The translations under genes were made by a program, and so were the position numbers. The notes under the pieces were generated by a model. That model had not been told where the DNA came from and ran no database searches. It saw nothing but the letters and a program-made list of their open reading frames with translations. 9,230 nt of DNA from the IMG/VR virus record IMGVR_UViG_2582580966_000002; one strand, written 5' to 3'. This document shows, one piece after another, positions 13 through 9,230 of this stretch (positions are counted from its first letter, which is position 1; each line of letters starts with the position of its first letter). Source of the DNA: a virus (lineage: Duplodnaviria; Heunggongvirae; Uroviricota; Caudoviricetes).

Positions 13-1296
13 CTATGATATGCGCTGAAATAATCCTGCCTGTCTGATACCCGGAGATGATGTCCATAGCATCGGACCACATGCACGCCACGTGCCCGGT
101 AAACGGGTCTCCCCCACATTACCGGAAGCAACCAGGGGAGTACCATCCGAAAGGCAACATGCAGACAGTGATGAGCCGGCAATGGCTGAGCCCGGTGCCA
201 TATCCCCCGAATAACTCGTCGCATAATATGCCGCAAGGACAAAAGAACCGACACCAAACAGTCCGCTGTCAGGACTTCCTGACGGTCCCTGAGGTCCTGC
301 CGGACCTGCGGCTCCCGTATCTCCTTTTGGCCCCTGAGGCCCTGCCTGACCTGCGGCTCCCGTATCCCCTTTTGGCCCCTGTGGTCCTGCCGGGCCTGCA
401 GCTCCCGTATCTCCCTTTGGCCCCTGAGGTCCTGCCGGACCTGCGGCTCCCGTATCTCCTTTTGGCCCCTGAGGTCCTGCCGGACCTGCGGCTCCCGTAT
501 CTCCTTTTGGCCCCTGAGGTCCTGCCGGGCCTGCAGCTCCCGTATCTCCCTTTGGCCCCTGAGGTCCTGCCGGACCTGCGGCTCCCGTATCTCCTTTTGG
601 CCCCTGAGGCCCTGCCTGACCTGCGGCTCCCGTATCCCCTTTTGGCCCCTGAGGCCCTGCCGGGCCTGCGGCTCCCGTATCCCCTTTTGGCCCCTGAAGC
701 CCTGCCGGGCCTGTATCCCCCTTGTCGCCCTTCGGTCCCAGTGGTCCGCCCGGATCGCCCTGCTCACCTTTCGGACCTGTATCCCCCTTATCGCCCTTGT
801 CACCTTTATCCCCTTTCGGCCCCGGTGGCCCTGCCGGGCCTGTATCGCCCTTGTCCCCCTTCTGTCCCTGTGGACCAGTTGCTCCGGTGTCGCCTTTCAG
901 TCCCTGTGGCCCCACGGCAGTTTCGGCTTTCTCAGCAGCTTCTCGCGCCCTGCGCACAGCCTCATCCGCCGCCGCTTCCAGCTTCTTCAGTGCATCAGGA
1001 TAATACGCTGCATCCGTTTCACGGAGCAGAAAGGCATTCAGGGTGCCCGGTTCGTCGTCGGCCATGACATCAATCTCGCCGGCGCATGCCGGCTGACGAC
1101 CTTCCACGCACAAGGTCACACGATAACGCCCCGGCTCAACCTGCATGCTGTAACTGCCCGTTTCGCCTGGCTGGTGCTCTGCCACCGTGGTGACTATCAC
1201 CGTCTCACTCGTTCGCGTGGCTTTCAGCTCTATGGTGCAGTCCGGTACCGGTTTTCCTGTACCATCCTTCAGCACACCTGAAATCTGTACTGACAT
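13..1296 (-). CDS. stf: Side tail fibre protein: lambda Stf-like N-terminal domain (~110 aa), collagen-like Gly-X-Y repeat region (~210 aa), short C-terminal domain (~90 aa)
   Basis: The N-terminus [43 protein letters not shown]... resembles lambda Stf ([26 protein letters not shown]...). It is followed by uninterrupted GXY triplets ([15 protein letters not shown]...). ATG at 1296-1294 verified; stop TAG at 13-15. Confidence 0.8.
286..690. repeat. Tandem array of nine 45-bp repeats (consensus cccctgaggtcctgccggacctgcggctcccgtatctccttttgg), each encoding a 15-aa collagen-like unit of the tail fibre
   Basis: Copies at 286, 331, 376, 421, 466, 511, 556, 601 and 646, read directly from the sequence. 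Copies 4, 5 and 7 are identical; copy 2 equals copy 8; copies 3 and 6 differ from each other by one base. More degenerate 9-bp Gly-X-Y periodicity continues to about 910. Confidence 0.95.
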
Positions 1297-2069
1297 ATTC
1301 CCCCCACAAAAAAGCCCACCAGAACCGGCGGGCTGTCATAACTCTGTGTTACCTGGCTATGGTAGTTCACCGTCATCTGCTGACCACCAAACTGCTCCGC
1401 ATCCACCTGCATCCCCACAATGGCCGTGTTCGGGTAGCACTGTTTCACATCGATGATTTCGGTGTATGACGACCACAGCGTTCTGTTCTGCAGCTGGTCC
1501 GTGGTGCTGTCCGCCGTCTCCCTGACCATCCGGATGTTAAAGGGGCGGGGAGGCAGATTATCCAGAATCACCGAGGCCAGGAACTGTGAGGTGGTCTTGC
1601 CGTTAATGGTGACATCCTTTTCTGTCACCCAGTTACCGTTACGCTGTAACTGAATCAGCAGACGGACAGAGGACGGATTACGGTCACCCTTTGACGTGGT
1701 CTCCACCAGTGACTGCACCCCGAAGGTCACCCGCAGGCGGTCAATGTTCGCTGACGTAATGGTGCGTGTTACCGGTTTTGCCCTGGTCACTTCGACACCC
1801 AGTACAGTTTCAGAGCCGGAGGACTCAAAGCCTTCCGGTGGTGTCTGCTCCTGCTCCCCGGCACGCCAGACCGCGGTCACACCGTGTATCACGGGATTAC
1901 CGTCCGTGTCCGTCAGCGGGGTTTTGTTCACCAGAATACTCTGCAGGCTTTTCACCGGGCCTTCTATCGGTCCCTCACCAATCGCATCAATCACGCTCAT
2001 CATCTGCGTGGATTTGAGATTGTCTTTCGCCTCACGAGGCGTGTGTGCCTTACCGCCACCTTTTCCCAT
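1269..2069 (-). pseudogene. J: Tail tip / host-specificity protein gpJ, N-terminal fragment only (~237 native codons of ~1130), then 29 codons of non-J sequence
   Basis: MGKGGGKAHTPREAKDNLKSTQMMSVIDAIGEGPIEGP...NLPPRPFNIRM...CYPNTAIVGMQVDAEQFGGQQ matches the lambda gpJ N-terminus. The remaining reading frame crosses the stf terminator and start codon and stops at 1269-1271. The ATG at 2069 is preceded by GGGAAGG. Confidence 0.85.
1308..1334 (-). terminator. Intrinsic terminator immediately upstream of the stf start (minus-strand stem AGCCCGCC/GGTGGGCT, loop GGTTCT, T6 tract)
   Basis: Minus-strand sequence agcccgccggttctggtgggctttttt read off the reverse complement of 1308-1334. The stem is 8 bp including one G-U pair. 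It is followed by GTGGGGGGAAT and the stf ATG. Confidence 0.55.
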
Positions 2070-2172
2070 ACAGCCTTCCCCTGAATAAATTAACCGCCAC
2101 TTGCCATTCCGTACAGAAGTCGGATATCCTTCGCCCGAAAAGCATGAAACACATTTCTGCCATGCTAAAGAG

Positions 2173-2202
2173 AAACCCCGGTATCAGCAGATACCGGGGT
2201 TT
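2173..2202. terminator. Bidirectional intrinsic terminator-like hairpin: perfect 12-bp stem AAACCCCGGTAT/ATACCGGGGTTT, 6-nt loop CAGCAG
   Basis: Perfect inverted repeat at 2173-2184 and 2191-2202. It is followed by TCTTTC on the plus strand and by TTTCTCTTT on the minus strand, so it could terminate in both directions. Confidence 0.6.
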
Positions 2203-2274
2203 TCTTTCATGCCCACCGATAATCCTGTTGGTTAAAACCGGTAATGGCATAAAAATTCTGAATATCTTCACATT

Positions 2275-2302
2275 TTCACAAACTGACCGTGGCGCGTATA
2301 AT
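2275..2302 (+). promoter_or_regulatory. Sigma70-type promoter: -35 TTCACA (2275-2280), 16-bp spacer, -10 TATAAT (2297-2302); AT-rich UP-like tract upstream (2246-2268)
   Basis: Hexamers read directly from the sequence: a perfect consensus -10 and a 5/6 match at -35. Predicted transcription start around 2309-2311. Confidence 0.6.
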
Positions 2303-2308
2303 TTCTCT

Positions 2309-2405
2309 GCGTTAATTTTTTTTTCGTGATATAAGAATAATTCCTTACACTTAATCTTCGTAACTCTCCCGCAGTTCCTGTCCGCGATCACTGCGGGATT
2401 TTTTT
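2309..2405 (+). ncRNA. Candidate small non-coding RNA (~95 nt) from the promoter at 2275-2302 to the terminator at 2367-2405
   Basis: Strong promoter and intrinsic terminator about 100 bp apart on the same strand. The interval has no plausible ORF (only GTG-ATA-TAA), is AU-rich, and ends in a hairpin plus U-tail, as Hfq-dependent sRNAs typically do. It runs opposite to all flanking phage genes. Confidence 0.45.
2367..2405 (+). terminator. Intrinsic terminator: 9-bp perfect stem TCCCGCAGT/ACTGCGGGA (2367-2375 / 2390-2398), 14-nt loop, T7 tract 2399-2405
   Basis: Read directly from the sequence. The T-tract is only on the plus-strand side, so it is unidirectional. The loop is longer than in typical terminators. 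Confidence 0.6.
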
Positions 2406-2412
2406 ATTCTTT

Positions 2413-3042
2413 TTACCCCTGCCGCCCGATAACCACGACCTTTCCGCCCCCGCCTTCATCACGGGTGCTGATGTCCTGGGATATACGGCGGGAGCCAACC
2501 AGCATTTCCCCGTAAGGCACCGGCATCGGGTTCCCCTGGGCAATCATGTTATCCAGCGAGGAAAAGTACGTGTTCTGTCTGCCGTTATCCGTTGCGCGGT
2601 AATCCGGTGTTTTTGCCTTCGGGGCCAGCATCTGGGCCACACCGCCCAGTATCATGCTGGCACCCAGTGAAAACAGCATCGTGGTGGCAGAAAAACCACC
2701 GGCACTCAGGGCTGTACCCCATAACGCCATCGAGCCTCCGGCCGTGAAGAAAGAGCCCACGATGGCTGCCGCCCCCAACACAATCTGCAGTCCACCCTTT
2801 CCGGCCCCGGCCAGTCGCGGCACAATGTGGATGACCGTTCCCTCACCCAGCTGTTCGTGAAGGCGGGCGTACACCACCTCCGGTGCCGTGTCTTCACCGG
2901 CAATACGTATCTGGTACCAGCCTTCGTTCATCTGAAGGCGAAAGCCCGGCATCTGCATCGACAGGGCGCGAATGGCTTCCGCTGCCGTGTTCACATACAG
3001 GCTGAGGCGGCGGCCAAATCGTTGTAAATCCCCGTGGTTGCC
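2413..3042 (-). pseudogene. I: Tail assembly protein gpI lacking its native N-terminus (~20 codons) and start codon
   Basis: ORF 2413..3078: ...GDLQRFGRRLSLYVNTAAEAIRAL...QNTYFSSLDNMIAQGN...GGGKVVVIGRQG matches lambda gpI from about residue 21 to the end. The first 15 residues of the track ORF (MMVEAVISGSTVGNH) are FII DNA in another frame. Confidence 0.85.
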
Positions 3043-3364
3043 CACGGTTGAGCCAGAGATAACAGCTTCCACCATCATCCGGCGAAACCCGGTCTATCCA
3101 GAAGTTTTCCTCACCGATGGTCAGCGTGTCTCCACGCCGCAGTTGCCGCACATCATCAGTCCGGACAAACAGGGACGGGCTGGAGCCTTCAACGCGCACG
3201 CCCTGTCCGGCATAGCTGATATTTTCAGGGTCATCAAAAACACCACGTATTACTGCGCCGGACTGCTCACCGGATGTCATGGTGGCTGACGTTCCCATGT
3301 ACCCGCGTATCGTTTCATCGGCGCGGGCAATGGCAGCATCGAACAGGTTATCGAAATCAGCCAC
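2894..3364 (-). pseudogene. FII: Head-tail connector gpFII with altered C-terminus: native residues 1 to ~108, then read-through into I-derived DNA in the wrong frame (48 foreign residues)
   Basis: ORF begins MADFDNLFDAAIARADETIRGYMGTSAT...DRVSPDDGGSCYLWLNRG, matching lambda gpFII (117 aa) up to about residue 108; the following sequence QPRGFTTIWPPPQPV... is not FII. Junction lies near 3037-3042. Confidence 0.8.
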
Positions 3365-3375
3365 AGCGCCTCCCG

Positions 3376-3771
3376 TTATTGCATTCTGGCCAGGCCGCGC
3401 TCTGTCATTTCAGCTGCCACACCGGCAGAGACACGGAACGCCGTTCCCGGCAGCACAAATGCCACAGTGTCATCCCGCGTGGCGTGAAGTGCATCAGTAT
3501 GCAGCGTCACCAGTGCCACGACCGTGACCAGAGCAGCCGTATCAATCACGGTATCCGGCTGCGCTGATACCACCTCATTTTCATGTCCGGTCAGCGCATT
3601 TTCCGGGCTGACAGATGTGTCCTGACCGGCAGCGTCATCCGTGTCATCAAGCTCCTCTTCCAGCTCTGCCACACGGAGCACCAGTTCTTCTTTCGTCCCC
3701 GTCAGGCTGACATCACGGTTCAGTTGCTCACCCAGCACCTGAAGACGGGCAATCAGTTCATCTTTCGTCAT
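3376..3771 (-). CDS. FI: DNA packaging / head completion protein gpFI
   Basis: Within ORF 3376..3810, MTKDELIARLQVLGEQLNRDVSLTGTKEEL...AAEMTERGLARMQ matches lambda gpFI; the start is the Met at residue 14 of the track ORF. Confidence 0.88.
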   Translation of the reverse strand: MTKDELIARLQVLGEQLNRDVSLTGTKEELVLRVAELEEELDDTDDAAGQDTSVSPENALTGHENEVVSAQPDTVIDTAALVTVVALVTLHTDALHATRDDTVAFVLPGTAFRVSAGVAAEMTERGLARMQ

Positions 3772-3812
3772 GGACTCCTCCACAGAGAGAAAATGGCCCC
3801 GAAGGGCCATGA

Positions 3813-4838
3813 TTACGCCAGTTGTACGGACACGAACGCATCAGGATCAGCCAGCAGCATCAGCGGTGCTGACTGAATCATGGTGAACTCACGCGCCGGA
3901 TCGCCGGTGGTCACCCAGTTTTTCGGGTAGCGGGCAGAGGCGTTAATACCTTCGCGCTGTGCGTCCGCATCCTGAATGCAGCCATAGGTGCGCAGACCGC
4001 GTGCCTGAGTGTTCCCCAGCACCATCGTGTTGTCCGGCAGGAAGTTCTTTTTGACGTCGTTTTCCACGTACTGTCCGGAATACACGACGATCGCCGTATC
4101 GCCATACATCCCCTTATAGGACACCGCTTCGCCCAGGTCTTTTACCGCTGTCTCCAGCTCGGAATTAGAGCCGCGACGGGTATCCAGCTTCTCCTTGACG
4201 GCTTTGAAGGAACGGAACAGCGCCCAGCCTTTCGGATCAAACACGATGATATTCACCACGCCGCTGGCGTTCAGCGCGTAGGCTTCGATATCGTCGGTCG
4301 GGTCATACGTGGACTTGTCACGCTTGCTCCACTCCGTGCCGCCGGACTGCGTGATGTTGTTCGCCGCACTGCGGCCCATATCCACCTCAACCGGATCGAA
4401 GGCTTCACCGGTCATGGTGTATTTGCCCTTGAGCACGGCAGAAACGGCCTGCATCTCTTCGACCTGAGCAATGGCCAGCTCTTCGTCACGCATGTTCTGC
4501 ATGATGATGCGACGGCGGCGGTAAGTCGGGTCCGCCAGATTCTGCGGATCTTCATCCGGCAGGCGACGCAGGGTCATCTGCGGATTCACTTCATGCTTGG
4601 GTTTGACATATCCCGGCGTAAATTCAGAGGTGGAGCCGCCACGGGAACGGATAACCTCACCGGAAACAATCGGCGAAACGTACAGCGCCATGTTTACCAG
4701 TCCCGGAATTTGTGAGAGATAGACTTTCTCCGTAGTGAAGGGATAGCTCTCACGGAAAAAGAGACGCAGAAACAGCGGATCAAACTTAAATTTCTGCTCA
4801 TTTGCCGCCAGCAGCTGGGCGGTTGTGTACATCGACAT
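3813..4838 (-). CDS. E: Major capsid protein gpE
   Basis: 341-aa ORF MSMYTTAQLLAANEQKFKFDPLFLRLFFRESYPF...DAFVSVQLA matches lambda gpE in length and sequence; ATG at 4838-4836 verified. Confidence 0.93.
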   Translation of the reverse strand: MSMYTTAQLLAANEQKFKFDPLFLRLFFRESYPFTTEKVYLSQIPGLVNMALYVSPIVSGEVIRSRGGSTSEFTPGYVKPKHEVNPQMTLRRLPDEDPQNLADPTYRRRRIIMQNMRDEELAIAQVEEMQAVSAVLKGKYTMTGEAFDPVEVDMGRSAANNITQSGGTEWSKRDKSTYDPTDDIEAYALNASGVVNIIVFDPKGWALFRSFKAVKEKLDTRRGSNSELETAVKDLGEAVSYKGMYGDTAIVVYSGQYVENDVKKNFLPDNTMVLGNTQARGLRTYGCIQDADAQREGINASARYPKNWVTTGDPAREFTMIQSAPLMLLADPDAFVSVQLA

Positions 4839-4893
4839 AAAAAAATCCCGTAAAAAAAGCCGAACAGGCGGCCTTTAGTGATGAAGGGTAAAG

Positions 4894-5226
4894 TTAAACG
4901 ATGCTGATTGCCGTTCCGGCAAACGCGGTCCGTTTTTTCGTCTCGTCGCTGGCAGCCTCCGGCCAGAGCACATCCTCATAACGGAACGTGCCGGACTTGT
5001 AGAACGTCAGCGTGGTGCTGGTCTGGTCAGCAGCAACCGCAAGAATGCCAACGGCAGCACCGTCGGTGGTGCCATCCCACGCAACCAGCTTACGGGTGGA
5101 GGTGTCCAGCATCAGCGGGGTCATTGCAGGCGCTTTCGCACTCAATCCGCCGGGCGCGGTTGCGGTATGAGCCGGGTCACTGTTGCCCAGCGGCTGGTAA
5201 TGGGTAAAGGTTTCTTTGCTCGTCAT
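4894..5226 (-). CDS. D: Head decoration protein gpD
   Basis: [27 protein letters not shown]...[10 protein letters not shown], 110 aa, matches lambda gpD. The track ORF starts two codons upstream (MFM...). Confidence 0.92.
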
Positions 5227-5235
5227 AAACATCCC

Positions 5236-5841
5236 TTACACTGGTGTGTTCAGCAAATCGTTAACGGCATCAGATGCCAGGTTACCTGCAGCCAGCGGTG
5301 CCGGTGCCCCCTGCATCAGACGATCCAGCGCAGTATCACTGCGCGCCTGTGCACTCTGTGGTGCTGCGGCCAGAATGCGGCGGGCCGTTTCCACGGTCAT
5401 ACCGGGGGGTTCTGCCAGCACGCGGGCCTGTTCTTCGCGTCCGTGAGCCTCCTCACAGTTGAGGATCCCCATAATGCGGCTGTTTTCTGCCGCAACCGCA
5501 GCGTTGATCTGCGCGTTCACGTCCGGCTGCGCCGCGCTGGCGTTTTCGCCCTCCATCGCTGGCACCACGCCAGTAACGTCAGCCTGCGAAGCAGTGGCTG
5601 AAACAGTTGTTGATTGAGTCTCTTTGGTCATTCGCCCTCCTGAGAGACGGGATTTACGTGCATCCAGTGCATCACGCATGATGGTGATCGCATCGGTACT
5701 GTTAACAAGTTCATCAGCCAGTCCGGCATCAATGGCCTCCTGACCGCTGTACACTGCAGCCTCGGTATCCAGCACAGCCTGCACGGACAGGCCGGTATAT
5801 GCCGACACCTTCTGTGCAAACATCCGGCGGGTTGCATCCAT
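5236..5841 (-). CDS. Nu3: Scaffolding protein Nu3, in-frame internal start within C
   Basis: ATG at 5841-5839 (verified on the sequence) begins MDATRRMFAQKVSAYTGLSVQ... in the C frame; 201 codons to the shared stop, as for lambda Nu3. Confidence 0.75.
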   Translation of the reverse strand: MDATRRMFAQKVSAYTGLSVQAVLDTEAAVYSGQEAIDAGLADELVNSTDAITIMRDALDARKSRLSGGRMTKETQSTTVSATASQADVTGVVPAMEGENASAAQPDVNAQINAAVAAENSRIMGILNCEEAHGREEQARVLAEPPGMTVETARRILAAAPQSAQARSDTALDRLMQGAPAPLAAGNLASDAVNDLLNTPV

Positions 5842-6555
5842 CCGGGACTGCAGTGTTTCCCGGACATCATCCGGTAGATGGCTGTAGGGGTTGCCATCCA
5901 CCTTATGGCTGCCGCTGTAAATCAGCGTGATTTCCACGCCCTGTTTCTCCAGCGCAGCACCGTAATTACTGTGAGCCATCATGACGCCGATGGAGCCTGT
6001 CCGGGCGGTCTGCGTGACCAGACGCCGGGAGGCGGCACTGGCAAGCAGCTGACCTGCGCTGCAGTTCATGTCATTGGCCAGCGCCCATACCGGCTTTATG
6101 TCACGCACACGGGCGATGATGTCAGCGCAGTCAAATGCCCCTGCCACCATTCCGCCGGGCGTGTCCATATCCAGCAGAATGCCGTCCACCATCGGGTCGC
6201 TGGCAGCCTGTTGCAGACGGGCGATAATGCCGTTGTAACCAGTCATCCCCGAATACGGCTGCAGCGCCCGCGTCCGGCAGACCAGCGTGCCGGAAACCGG
6301 CAGCACGGCGATGCCGTTCATGACCTGATAACTGCGGGCCTGTCGTGGTCCGTCATCATTAACGGATAACGCCAGCTTCGCGGGTGCCTCTCCGGCAGTC
6401 AGGCTGTCACCGGACACCGCATCCGTCAGGCGGCTGATCCCAAGCTGGCCTGCAAGCGCACAAAAGAAAACCCGCGCATAGGCGGGTTCAAGCATAAGCG
6501 GCTCATTAAAGGCCATGCTGGCAATATGCGGGAGATTACGCAGCTCTGCTGTCAC
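5236..6555 (-). CDS. C: Head maturation protease / scaffold processing protein gpC
   Basis: ORF 5236..6690 contains VTAELRNLPHIASMAFNEPLMLEPAYARVFF...AVNDLLNTPV, matching lambda gpC (439 aa). The native start is the GTG at 6555-6553, giving 439 codons and a 20-nt overlap with the B stop; the upstream part of the track ORF is B read in another frame. Confidence 0.9.
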   Translation of the reverse strand: MTAELRNLPHIASMAFNEPLMLEPAYARVFFCALAGQLGISRLTDAVSGDSLTAGEAPAKLALSVNDDGPRQARSYQVMNGIAVLPVSGTLVCRTRALQPYSGMTGYNGIIARLQQAASDPMVDGILLDMDTPGGMVAGAFDCADIIARVRDIKPVWALANDMNCSAGQLLASAASRRLVTQTARTGSIGVMMAHSNYGAALEKQGVEITLIYSGSHKVDGNPYSHLPDDVRETLQSRMDATRRMFAQKVSAYTGLSVQAVLDTEAAVYSGQEAIDAGLADELVNSTDAITIMRDALDARKSRLSGGRMTKETQSTTVSATASQADVTGVVPAMEGENASAAQPDVNAQINAAVAAENSRIMGILNCEEAHGREEQARVLAEPPGMTVETARRILAAAPQSAQARSDTALDRLMQGAPAPLAAGNLASDAVNDLLNTPV

Positions 6556-7708
6556 TCTTCTCCTCCTCTGTTGATTGTCGCAGTCCGGATTCAAATGCCG
6601 CAGCCGCCCAGGCGGGCGGTTTAAGACCGGCTGCACGGCGCTCCATCGTTTCACGGACCTGCTGGGCAAAAATTTCCTGATAGTCGTCACCGCGTTTTGC
6701 GCACTCTTTCTCGTAGGTACTCAGTCCGGCTTCTATCAGCATCACCGCTTCCTGTACTTCTTTCAGACCATCGATGGCCATACGACCGGAGCCTATCCAG
6801 TCACAGTTCCCCCAGGCGCTGCGGGCTTCCTGAAAGCTGAAACGCGCTTTTGAAGGTAACGTCACCACGCGGCGAACGATGGCCTCTTCCAGCCAGCACA
6901 GAAACATCTGGCTCGCCTGACGGGATGCGACGAATTTTCGCCGCCCCATAAAGTACGCCCACGACTCGTTCGCACTGGCCCGTGCCGTGGAATAGCTCAT
7001 CTGGGCGTAATTCCGGGAAAGCTGCTCATACGAGACACCCAGCCCGGCAGCGATATACCGCAACAGTGACTGCTCAAACACGGAGTAGCCGTTATCCGTA
7101 TCCTGAGCCGTCTGCAGGTTCAGTGAGTCACCCGGCATCAGGTGCGGCACTTTTGCGCCTCCCAGCCGAACCGGTGCTGCGGCGTAATACGCGGCAATTT
7201 CACCAATCCAGCCGGTCAGCTTGTCCCGCTGCTCCTGACTGTTCGCGCCCAGAATAAAATCCATCGCTGACTGCGTATCCAGCTCACTCTCAATGGTGGC
7301 GGCATACATCGCCTTCACAATGGCGCTCTGCAGCTGCGTGTTCTGCAGCGTGTCGAGCATCTTCATCTGCTCCATCACGCTGTAAAACACATTTGCACCG
7401 CGGGTCTGCCCGTCCTCCACGGGTTCAAAAACGTGAATGAACGAGGCGCGCCCGCCGGGTAACTCACGGGGTATCCATGTCCATTTCTGCGGCATCCAGC
7501 CAGGATAGCCGTCCTCGCTGACGTAATATCCCAGCGCCGCACCGCTGTCATTAATCTGCACACCGGCACGGCAGTTCCGGCTGTCGCCGGTATTGTTCGG
7601 GTTGCTGATGCGCTTCGGGCTGACCATCCGGAACTGTGTCCGGAAAAGCCACGACGGACTGGTATCCCAGGTGGCCTGAACGAACAGTTCACCGTTAAAG
7701 GCGTGCAT
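6536..7708 (-). pseudogene. B: Portal protein gpB, N-terminally truncated (~140 codons missing; remnant begins at MHAFNGELFVQATWDT)
   Basis: ORF 6536..7732 (the track start is a TTG; first ATG at 7708-7706). The protein from MHAFNGELFV to ...STEEEKSDSRAA matches the C-terminal ~390 residues of lambda gpB (533 aa). It lacks its own start region and ribosome-binding site, and lies in the same frame as A immediately after the A stop codon. Confidence 0.85.
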
Positions 7709-7751
7709 GCAGTGCCGCACGGGCAGCGGCAAGTTCTTCCTGTCGCGTCAT
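7695..7751 (-). pseudogene. W: Head-tail joining gene W remnant: first 15 codons only ([15 protein letters not shown]), then 3 foreign codons and TAA
   Basis: Hand translation of the minus strand from ATG 7751-7749 gives [18 protein letters not shown]-stop. The first 15 residues equal the lambda gpW N-terminus ([21 protein letters not shown]...); sequence after codon 15 is B-derived, read out of frame. Confidence 0.8.
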
Positions 7752-9230
7752 TCATCCTCTCCGGATAAGGCACGGGCGTAATCTGCCAGTGTTTTCTTGT
7801 TGGTTGCTGCACCATCCTCTTCCTTCAGGCTCGCCAGCAGTGCACTGAGATCCAGCTGCCAGCGGGAAATACTGATGCGCAGCGCCGCCAGCGCATAAAC
7901 GAAGCAGTCGAGCGCCTCATTGCGTCGTTTTTTGCTGTCCCACAGTATTTTTTTCCTGCCATCCACCCATTTTTCGACCTGCTCTTCAGCCGTCAGCTGC
8001 TGCGCTTCGGTCAGATCAAAAATATCCGGGTTATTCGGGAAGTGAACGGCACCGGGAAGCGGTTCATCCCCTTCCGGCGTCAGTGTGAAGCGGTTATAAA
8101 TCTGCTCTTTCGCGGTATCCGTACCGATTTCGGTAAGGTAAACCCCGTTTTTGTTTCGCTTACGTGGCATGCTGGCCACCGGCTTTCCGTAGACGGATGC
8201 CCCTTTAATGGGGATCCCCCGGAACAGCCCATGTTTTTTCGAGCGTTCATACACGATGGTCGGGTCAATCCCGCCAGTATCCCAGCAGATACGGGATACC
8301 GACATTTCTGCACCATTCCGGCGGGTATAGGTTTTATTGATGGCCTCATCCACACGCAGCAGCGTCTGTTCATCGTCGTGGCGGCCCATAATAATCTGCC
8401 GATCAATCAGCCAGCTTTCCTCACCCGGCCCCCATCCCCATACGCGCATTTCGTAGCGATCCAGCTGGGAGTCGATACCGGCGGTCAGGTAAGCCACACG
8501 GTCAGGAACGGGCGCTGAATAATGCTCTTTCCGCTCTGCCATCACTTCAGCATCCGGACGTTCGCCAATTTTCGCCTCCCACGTCTCACCGAGCGTGGTG
8601 TTTACGAAGGTTTTACGTTTTCCCGTATCCCCTTTCGTTTTCATCCAGTCTTTGACAATCTGCACCCAGGTGGTGAACGGGCTGTACGCTGTCCAGATGT
8701 GAAAGGTCACACTGTCAGGTGGCTCAATCTCTTCACCGGATGACGAAAACCAGAGAATGCCATCACGGGTCCAGATCCCGGTCTTTTCGCAGATATAACG
8801 GGCATCAGTAAAGTCCAGCTCCTGCTGGCAGATGACGCAGGCATTATGCTCGCAGAGATAAAACACGCTGGAGGGGTCATCCGGCGTCCATTTGAGGCCA
8901 AACGGCGTCTCTTTGTCGCCAAATTTAAGATACTGCTCCTCCCCGCAGTGCGGGCAGGCAACATGAAAACGCATAAAATGCGGGGATTCACTGGCTGCAC
9001 GCTCAATCTGGCAGGTGCCTCTCACTTTGGGCGTGGAGCCACGGATGGACTTTGGCCAGACCGAGCCTTCAATACGCTTATCGCCCAGGAACGTCGGAGA
9101 GCCTTCCTGTTCAATATCCTCATCAAAGGCAGCAAGTTCATCATACCCCGCCACATCCACTGACTTTTCACGGTAGTTTTTTGCCGCTTTACCGCCCAGG
9201 CACCAGAAGCCACGACCATTGGAAAAACGC
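7748..9230 (-). CDS. A: Terminase large subunit gpA, 3' portion (N-terminal ~150 codons lie beyond the window edge)
   Basis: ORF 7748..9160 and its open upstream extension to the window edge (frame hand-translated to ...RFSNGRGFWCLGGKAAKNYREKS before the GTG at 9160). The C-terminus ...KKTLADYARALSGEDE matches lambda gpA as I recall it. Stop TGA at 7748-7750 overlaps the W ATG (7749-7751) as in lambda. Confidence 0.9.
   Translation of the reverse strand, partial: RFSNGRGFWCLGGKAAKNYREKSVDVAGYDELAAFDEDIEQEGSPTFLGDKRIEGSVWPKSIRGSTPKVRGTCQIERAASESPHFMRFHVACPHCGEEQYLKFGDKETPFGLKWTPDDPSSVFYLCEHNACVICQQELDFTDARYICEKTGIWTRDGILWFSSSGEEIEPPDSVTFHIWTAYSPFTTWVQIVKDWMKTKGDTGKRKTFVNTTLGETWEAKIGERPDAEVMAERKEHYSAPVPDRVAYLTAGIDSQLDRYEMRVWGWGPGEESWLIDRQIIMGRHDDEQTLLRVDEAINKTYTRRNGAEMSVSRICWDTGGIDPTIVYERSKKHGLFRGIPIKGASVYGKPVASMPRKRNKNGVYLTEIGTDTAKEQIYNRFTLTPEGDEPLPGAVHFPNNPDIFDLTEAQQLTAEEQVEKWVDGRKKILWDSKKRRNEALDCFVYALAALRISISRWQLDLSALLASLKEEDGAATNKKTLADYARALSGEDE

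Follow-up and report, generated by a model that had tools for sequence, protein, structure and literature searches.

The analysis of the window, a stretch of 9,230 nt that is the whole of draft contig JMGU01000151.1 from a stool E. coli, showed that it very probably represents the late genes of a lambda-type prophage that has become defective, under recent and still ongoing neutral decay in a commensal or diarrhoeal E. coli clone. With high confidence, the head gene block C/Nu3-D-E-FI is unbroken because the deletions on its sides are very young on the scale of sequence divergence and by chance fell outside it. No evidence points to retention of a capsid-forming capacity. The original prediction had also considered recent decay likelier than retained capsid capacity, and this preference is reinforced by six near-identical clonal assemblies, an intact relative at 99.87% identity and two sister isolates that lack C, D and five sixths of E.

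Gene-by-gene comparison was performed with lambda (NC_001416) as reference. The head genes had been described as having full length, native start codons and native spacings, and this was confirmed for the exact span 3376-6555. No premature stops or frameshifts were found within C, Nu3, D, E and FI on alignment to lambda, and the intergenic spacings in the block (9, 55, 41 and 11 nt) are exactly those of lambda. Gene C differs from its lambda counterpart by 16 amino acids, and the 25-nt upstream region with the Shine-Dalgarno sequence is identical. The one-codon shortening of FI was ruled out as a lesion, since isolated phages such as PhiR29_1 and intact prophages also carry this 131-aa allele. 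The exact C protein was found on only three contigs in a collection of 15 billion proteins, the exact D protein on at least 1000, and an identical E protein is also encoded by the intact prophage contigs L017-L022. The Pfam families GpA, Phage_portal_2, Peptidase_S49, HDPD, Phage_cap_E, Packaging_FI and Phage_attach are all present, and the genes are collinear with the lambda-type head module A-W-B-C/Nu3-D-E-FI-FII, with 97-98% nucleotide identity in two collinear blocks. A packaging-competent head set would include full portal B, W and FII, and all three are cut. Because these are missing in full-length form, the remnant alone would presumably be unable to build a DNA-packaging head.

Table 1. 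Genes, gene remnants, deletion junctions and predicted small RNA gene in the window.
Feature	Position	Strand	Description
Side tail fibre gene	13..1296	-	Collagen-like 45-bp x 9.5 tandem repeat at 287-713
J remnant	1269..2069	-	~238 native codons, then out of frame; 266-aa ORF
Deletion junction 3	1355..1359	.	J at ~codon 238 joined just upstream of side tail fibre gene
PasB-type small RNA gene (predicted)	2309..2405	+	In 343-nt I-J spacer, antisense to late genes
Tail assembly gene I	2413..2994	-	193-aa reading
FII chimera	2894..3364	-	Cut 23 nt before FII stop, reads into K/I region; 156-aa ORF
Deletion junction 2	3034..3036	.	FII end joined to last 46 nt of K; CAC microhomology; ~6.96 kb in relative L008
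Gene FI (packaging chaperone)	3376..3771	-	131 aa, one codon less than lambda
Gene E (major capsid protein)	3813..4838	-	341 aa, 7 aa differences from lambda
Gene D (head decoration)	4894..5226	-	110 aa, 2 aa differences from lambda
Nu3 scaffold	5236..5841	-	201 aa, ATG start, nested in frame inside C
Gene C (S49 head protease/scaffold)	5236..6555	-	439 aa, GTG start as in lambda; Pfam Peptidase_S49
Portal gene B remnant	6536..7708	-	Codons 144-533, 390 codons, open, starts at native Met143 codon; Pfam Phage_portal_2
W remnant	7695..7751	-	15 native codons, then out-of-frame portal sequence; 18-codon ORF
Deletion junction 1	7706..7709	.	CATG microhomology; lambda 2679-3263, 585 bp
Terminase large subunit gene A	7748..9230	-	Codons 149-641, open, runs off contig end

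The extent of the three deletions could be defined by the same comparison. The portal had been reported as deleted, but an open B remnant of 390 codons stays (533 aa in intact relatives); what is lost at junction 1, here and in sister contigs L004, L005 and L007, is codons 1-143 of B and the part of W beyond codon 15. The tail genes are likewise only partly lost: the stretch from the FII end to K is gone, together with most of J and lom, but I, an initial ~238 codons of J and the side tail fibre gene are still in place. At junction 2, FII has lost its last 7 codons and is joined to foreign sequence, and Z through K are missing; gene I lacks its first 3-19 codons if translation really begins further upstream, at the start used in lambda or in the L018 call of 210 aa. 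Deletion 3 covers ~3.4 kb in lambda terms, including the remainder of J and lom. The part of A in the window aligns to lambda 1154-2636 without gaps (98.4%, 6 amino acid differences, no stop), and the complete 641-aa A is carried by sister contigs L004 and L005. An ORF list beginning at 9160 had suggested that A stops prematurely; this was ruled out, as in-frame translation is open from the contig end.

Comparison of orthologous loci across strains had been proposed for dating the deletions; the junctions proved to be clonal and a near-identical intact relative was found, which indicates that the deletions are young. The same FII chimera is present in five further assemblies, which show 0-3 SNPs against the window outside the tail-fibre repeat, and six assemblies of one clone have the junctions in common. 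No paper was found by literature search with the assembly accessions. The remnant can be considered both rare and young, since junction 2 was not found among 5,426 complete E. coli genomes and the chimeric ORFs occur on only 7 contigs (7 for the exact FII chimera and 7 for the exact J chimera in the 15-billion-protein collection). Intact prophage contig L018 differs from the remnant by 4 nt in 3,138 (C codon 129 to FII), only 2 of which are derived on the remnant side.

Two sister contigs, L002 and L003, carry junctions 2 and 3 plus a fourth deletion, which extends from the 5' part of a nanS-type esterase gene to E codon ~284 and takes the lysis genes, Nu1, A, the B remnant, C, D and most of E. 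In L002 the remnant adjoins ykgJ-like, potB, potA, pepT, roxA and phoQ genes (99.9-100% to E. coli), and its surroundings are ordinary lambdoid nin/Q/late DNA with ninE, rusA, Q, tRNAs and the nanS-type esterase gene. An intact relative is situated at the same potB-side site in strain 23CRST047. The position of phage genes beside chromosomal core genes and the loss or disruption of essential virion genes by the three deletions are both characteristic of a cryptic prophage. In other lineages the same prophage type is broken elsewhere, with a frameshifted C in S1-CAM-01-A and a deleted tape-measure gene in PV0838. The contigs of the head-bearing isolates end inside Nu1 or A, at a different point in each assembly.

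Substitutions private to the remnant lineage were scored against a panel of 16 relatives, and five were found from A to FI, two in the head block and three in A. Three are non-synonymous and two synonymous, a proportion (3/5 against a purifying baseline, P = 0.14) based on too few changes for a test. All three non-synonymous changes are radical, i.e. R282C and V486G in A, which are private to the lineage or to the window, and T383P in C/Nu3. The last arose after the deletions, since sister L007 keeps Thr at this position, as do 16/16 panel sequences. Three other changes (E A105T, R163W in the B remnant and one in the D-E spacer) had seemed private against 10 relatives but were ruled out as post-deletion mutations, being common to intact prophage contigs.

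The unbroken frames are what neutrality would give, since with 2 random substitutions all five head ORFs stay open in 94% of trials. When three deletions of the observed sizes were placed at random, the 3.18-kb block was spared in 13% of placements within the late region alone and in up to 57% across the whole prophage. The dN/dS ratios, suggested earlier as a check, could be computed (medians of 0.14 for C, 0.22 for D, 0.09 for E and 0.35 for FI) and resemble those among seven isolated phages (lambda and six others), but they decide nothing on the post-deletion period, because nearly all divergence from lambda accrued while the ancestors were working phages.

The question had also been raised whether another phage could provide the missing functions in trans. 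According to this explanation, the head block and terminase are kept as a capsid-forming module, with Q, portal, W, FII and tails supplied by a helper lambdoid phage. All of C, Nu3, D, E and FI have open frames and native translation signals, as does A in the sisters, where it is fully open and contiguous with the head block. Such retention is nevertheless very unlikely: the intactness is already expected under neutrality, the block was lost in two sister isolates with no sign of compensation, the block has only two private changes, one of them the Thr-to-Pro exchange in the scaffold, fixed after the deletions, and the clone is rare. It is just as hard to credit that a co-resident or superinfecting helper triggers expression and that the remnant contributes to, or rides in, helper virions. 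In O157, even prophages that are defective in morphogenesis can be released in particle form and transferred, apparently via inter-prophage interactions (PMC2669165), and the contig breaks inside Nu1 or A would be compatible with another terminase region of similar sequence in the genome. However, a helper with a lambda-type head would bring its own near-identical C-FI, making the remnant copies redundant. There is similarly little probability that terminase and C-FI are kept for their usefulness on induction of a co-resident phage, whether as additional or variant capsid, scaffold and packaging proteins for mixed particles finished with helper portal and tails, or by interfering, through the portal and FII fragments, with the assembly of a superinfecting phage. 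Nothing supports trans-complementation, and every comparative observation fits neutral decay better. The signs looked for as marks of domestication (three non-synonymous to two synonymous changes, a maximum of seven contigs, two sisters without the block) point in the opposite direction, as a tendency with no statistical power at five changes. A limited literature search on 'petit lambda' and gpB found no paper.

Even less probable is a role as a defence element, in which truncated or chimeric products would poison the assembly of heads or tails by incoming lambda-like phages. The candidate products are all open (the 390-aa portal fragment, the 156-aa FII chimera and the 266-aa J fragment), and translation of the portal fragment could be coupled to that of the 18-codon W remnant, the end of which overlaps the native ATG of the fragment. 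On inspection of the sequence, however, no Shine-Dalgarno sequence was found upstream of this ATG; transcription of these ORFs would come only from the phage late promoter, and the portal fragment is deleted in sister isolates. Short-read artefacts, i.e. chimeric joins among several lambdoid prophages, could be suspected in a 9.2-kb draft contig with repeats at its ends and a tail-fibre repeat number that varies among assemblies, but are extremely unlikely as the source of the deletions, the same three junctions being seen again in independent assemblies whose isolates bear different sample names, the junction microhomologies of just 3-4 bp being well under any assembler k-mer, and the J chimera being found also in Logan assemblies of raw runs.

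In the favoured reading of neutral decay, a lambda-type prophage, which sister contigs place at the potB-side attachment site, was inactivated by three illegitimate deletions with microhomology of 0-4 bp. The first hit W and the 5' end of portal gene B, the second the stretch from the FII end to K, and the third most of J with lom. The head block would have survived between deletions 1 and 2 by chance and youth, without being kept, and a later fourth deletion took most of it in two sister isolates. The head genes are presumably selectively neutral by now, and their loss or breakage can be expected with time. The locus offers a clear and datable snapshot of stepwise prophage decay inside one E. 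coli clone, with three shared deletions followed by a fourth in some isolates and an almost identical intact relative at hand for comparison. Such a case could be used to illustrate how fast deletions outrun point mutations during prophage decay. It gives no reason to think that capsid genes were co-opted and has little importance beyond bookkeeping.

Separately from the head genes, a PasB-type small RNA gene was predicted in the I-J spacer. Positions 2275-2302 resemble a promoter (11/12 match), and the terminator at 2381-2397 has a T run behind it. The published PasB probe, taken as its reverse complement, aligns to the window at 2381-2400 (20/23 nt). In both sequence and position the predicted gene matches the experimentally validated PasB of EPEC E2348/69, which lies in the same place between I and J on the same opposite strand. 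Both have the same -10 box and terminator hairpin, and the central part is only ~70% identical, so that the window copy represents a sequence variant. A scan of the whole window against Rfam gave no family above threshold, and NC_049945, guessed to be the PasB-bearing reference phage of a preprint, was not among the matches of the I-J spacer in a phage-collection search; the identification is based on the E2348/69 coordinates and the probe. It has been remarked in the literature that PasB often outlives neighbouring phage genes, and the survival of this predicted gene between two deletions fits that remark.

The gene order of the remnant is that of lambda and its close relatives (Lambdavirus; PhiR29_1, ev207 and Kati), with 97-99% nucleotide identity and the same start codons (including the GTG of C), spacings and Pfam families. 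Unlike lambda, the remnant lacks W and portal codons 1-143, the end of FII, and Z through K. The cf-PICIs carry a complete small head module including portal and connectors, together with their own integrase and replication genes, and are without tail genes by design. The likeness to these satellites, capsid genes without a tail, is superficial; the remnant differs from them in its truncated portal, in the remaining pieces of I, J and stf and in its ordinary lambdoid nin/Q/late surroundings. As a chromosomal lambdoid prophage with several internal deletions in morphogenesis genes, it resembles defective lambdoid prophages such as those of the O157 Sakai Sp pool (PMC2669165). In incomplete prophages, tail-fibre genes have been reported to be enriched and packaging genes to be lost (PMC7744054), and the remnant follows this trend in keeping its tail-fibre genes. 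As in other defective lambdoid prophages, decay differs between closely related isolates. Cryptic lambdoid prophages of K-12 include Rac, Qin and DLP12, and the remnant is much younger than these, with 2 private substitutions in 3.2 kb and its intact relative so close at hand. The locus is an ordinary decaying lambdoid prophage.

The whole draft contig JMGU01000151.1 (9,230 bp, assembly GCA_000687025.1) is identical to the window, and E. coli 2-474-04_S3_C2, 2-005-03_S4_C1, 2-011-08_S3_C2 and 3-073-06_S3_C1 are among the source names of its proteins. All substantial open reading frames lie on the minus strand. Phage lambda (NC_001416) was used as the reference for alignment and gene mapping, and the window aligned to it in five collinear pieces. 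The genes C, Nu3, D, E and FI, when mapped from lambda, contain no internal stops, and the original prediction of full-length frames with native starts and spacings at 3376-6555 was right, coordinates included. The start codon of C is GTG, just as it is in lambda, and the preceding 25 nt are identical to those of lambda, while the other four genes start with ATG; in both sequences the C-D, D-E, E-FI and FI-FII gaps measure 9, 55, 41 and 11 nt. At 131 aa, FI represents a normal allele, also found in the isolated phages PhiR29_1 and PhiR34_1 and in intact prophage contigs. Longer mechanical calls (C 484 aa, FI 144, D 112) are mere upstream extensions to earlier start codons.

Features of the window, with differences from lambda where compared
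Feature	Position	Strand	Length	Remarks
Collinear piece 1	9230..7706			lambda 1154..2678; 98.4%, ungapped
Collinear piece 2	7709..3051			lambda 3264..7925; 97.2%, one 3-nt gap
Collinear piece 3	3035..2423			lambda I; 70%
Collinear piece 4	2069..1373			first 697 nt of J; 78%
Collinear piece 5	1359..1135			just upstream of and into side tail fibre gene (stf); 79%
C	6555..5236	minus	439 aa	16 aa differences
Nu3	5841..5236	minus	201 aa	9 aa differences
D	5226..4894	minus	110 aa	2 aa differences
E	4838..3813	minus	341 aa	7 aa differences
FI	3771..3376	minus	131 aa	16 substitutions, one codon missing
stf	13-1296	minus		
Tandem repeat in stf	287-713			collagen-like; 45-bp unit, 9.5 copies, 93% match
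I-J spacer	2070-2412		343 nt	
Putative PasB-type Hfq-dependent sRNA gene	2275-2405	plus		in I-J spacer, antisense to late operon; from sequence
Predicted promoter	2275-2302	plus		near-consensus TTCACA-16-TATAAT
Predicted intrinsic terminator hairpin	2381-2397			plus strand; followed by T run
GC-rich hairpin	2166-2210	both		AAACCCCGGTATC...GATACCGGGGTTT
Private base, A Gly176				synonymous; window only
Private base, A R282C	8830			remnant lineage
Private base, A V486G	8217			window only
Private base, C Thr105				synonymous
Private base, C T383P	5409			

The window contains three deletions. The part of gene A on the contig (codons 149-641) reads through to its stop without interruption and has 6 aa differences from lambda; the full 641-aa A with part of Nu1 is present on sister contigs. 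Deletion 1 removed 585 bp (lambda 2679-3263) at a CATG microhomology (7706-7709); W keeps 15 codons before running out of frame into an 18-codon reading frame, and B, without codons 1-143, persists as an open 390-codon remnant from the native Met143 codon, before which no obvious ribosome-binding site was seen on inspection of the sequence. Deletion 2, best delimited against two intact relatives (L008, the prophage of E. coli 23CRST047, and contig L018), extends between points 23 nt short of the FII stop and 46 nt short of the end of K, with CAC as the junction microhomology; about 6.96 kb is lost, comprising Z, U, V, G, T, H, M, L and almost the whole of K. FII reads past this junction as a 156-aa chimera ending at 2894. 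Gene I persists as a 193-aa reading, the version of RefSeq; should translation really begin further upstream, as it does in lambda or in the 210-aa reading called for L018, 3 to 19 of its codons would be gone. The I-J spacer is native to this phage type. At deletion 3, J breaks off near codon 238 and is joined to sequence a short way upstream of stf; lom and the remainder of J are missing, some 3.4 kb on the lambda map. That portal and tail are deleted thus holds in substance but not literally, as the B remnant, I, some 238 codons of J and stf remain. The deletions are very unlikely to be assembly artefacts: several isolates bearing different names show these junctions in their assemblies, Logan assemblies also record the J chimera, and microhomologies of 3-4 bp are too short to mislead an assembler.

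In sister assemblies the stf frame measures 397, 412, 427 or 442 aa, in steps of 15 aa which may reflect either copy-number variation or repeat collapse in drafts. The stf repeat also holds nearly all inter-sister SNPs.

Between deletions 2 and 3 the I-J spacer retains a predicted sRNA gene. For the EPEC sRNA PasB, the published northern probe AATCCCGCAGTGATCGCGGAGCT (PMC8550237 supplement) is complementary to window 2381-2400. In E2348/69, PasB likewise lies between I and J in the same relative orientation and shares the -10 box and terminator, whereas the middle is only about 70% alike, and for this reason the window gene is classed, by sequence, as a putative PasB variant. It carries a private window SNP at 2323. 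A 2026 preprint (10.64898/2026.05.13.724894) places PasB inside a phage structural operon and notes that it often occurs away from any prophage that can be recognised, as though the genes around it had decayed. The strong hairpin at 2166-2210 has T or A runs to either side on both strands and resembles a bidirectional terminator, situated inside the late operon between PasB and the J start; Q-modified polymerase presumably reads through it in a working phage.

An exact-protein look-up with the FII chimera matched seven contigs, six of them displayed. Three sisters (L004, L005 and L007) share the window's architecture and differ from it by 3, 3 and 2 bases over 7.7-8.9 kb, the 45-bp stf repeat left out. 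The sole head-block difference among these four is position 5409, where L007 has ACC (Thr383 of C, Thr145 of Nu3) and the others CCC (Pro). The FII and J chimeras were found in only 7 contigs of a 15-billion-protein collection, and junction 2 in none of 5,426 complete E. coli genomes. An exact gpE look-up retrieved intact prophage contigs (L017-L022) with W, a 533-aa portal, a 117-aa FII and full tails. Over window 6171..3034, L018 shows 4 mismatches in 3,138 nt, two being its own changes and two the Thr-to-Pro change and a D-E spacer base common to other relatives. The remnant lineage was compared with 16 relatives, of which seven are isolated phages (lambda among them) and nine are prophage or contig sequences; no more than five bases from A to FII proved private to it, two of them in the 3.18-kb head block. 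Three are non-synonymous and two synonymous, a ratio which fits neutrality (P = 0.14 against a baseline of 28% non-synonymous, by our own arithmetic), the count being too small for a test. R282C and V486G are radical changes in the terminase large subunit, present in none of 15-16 relatives.

Median pairwise dN/dS for the window against seven isolated phages, and among those seven, was 0.14 (0.12-0.34) and 0.05 for C, 0.22 and 0.40 for D, 0.09 and 0.09 for E, 0.35 (up to 1.07 against lambda) and 0.32 (up to 0.90) for FI, and 0.10 and 0.06 for A, values that record the history of working phages and are silent on the short time after the deletions. The somewhat higher value for C stems from an N-terminal allele that the window has in common with the intact prophages L008 and L009, from which the window's C differs by only 3 and 6 changes.

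When random substitutions were simulated on the head block (transition/transversion ratio 2), all five frames stayed open in 94% of trials at 2 changes, 87% at 5 and 54% at 20. Three random non-overlapping deletions of the observed sizes missed the block in 13% of cases within the 22-kb late region and in 57% within a 46-kb prophage. The intactness of the head block is therefore not surprising.

Decay has gone further in two sisters, L002 and L003, which carry junctions 2 and 3 and an FI-FII-I-J segment identical to the window, truncations included. A fourth deletion of about 12 kb (L002 3814-4065, L003 1013-1264) has fused E, at about codon 284, to the 5' end region of a nanS-type (SASA) esterase gene, which follows Q, a DNA methylase and three tRNA genes; gone with it are the lysis genes, Nu1, A, the portal remnant, C, D and five sixths of E. 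The flank of L002 (ykgJ-like, potB, potA, pepT, roxA, phoQ) is 99.9-100% identical to E. coli chromosomes, and in strain 23CRST047 this site is occupied by a mostly complete prophage of the same type. Other prophages of the type bear single lesions elsewhere and are otherwise complete: a C frameshift in S1-CAM-01-A (L009 14194-15512) and a deleted T/H tape-measure region in PV0838 (L010 6304-6894). The right-hand flanks of the same remnant differ, with integrase, yfdC, mlaA and fadL in L003 (4627-12356) against ykgJ-like/potB/potA in L002 (7338-15157), and the distal tail-fibre/tfa parts are only 96.6% identical; this suggests recombination or inversion between two prophages in the L003 isolate.

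The window very probably represents a lambda-type prophage inactivated a short time ago by three illegitimate deletions, with its head genes still open by default. The earlier preference for recent decay is supported by the two private head-block changes, the near-identical L018 and the further deletion in sisters. Procapsid formation in lambda is known to be nucleated by the portal gpB, while completion of the head and attachment of tails require gpW and gpFII; alone, the element should thus be unable to make a packaging-competent head. At most, portal-less shells might form if the late operon were transcribed. Complementation by a helper phage is conceivable, as defective O157 prophages can be released and passed on, apparently by way of interactions between prophages (PMC2669165), but a helper with a lambda-type head would bring its own near-identical C-FI, and loss of the head block in sister isolates speaks against any need for it. 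The direction of decay matches surveys of incomplete prophages, which report preferential loss of genes for packaging and release alongside enrichment of those for tail fibres (PMC7744054). The remnant is an ordinary young defective prophage of a kind already known.
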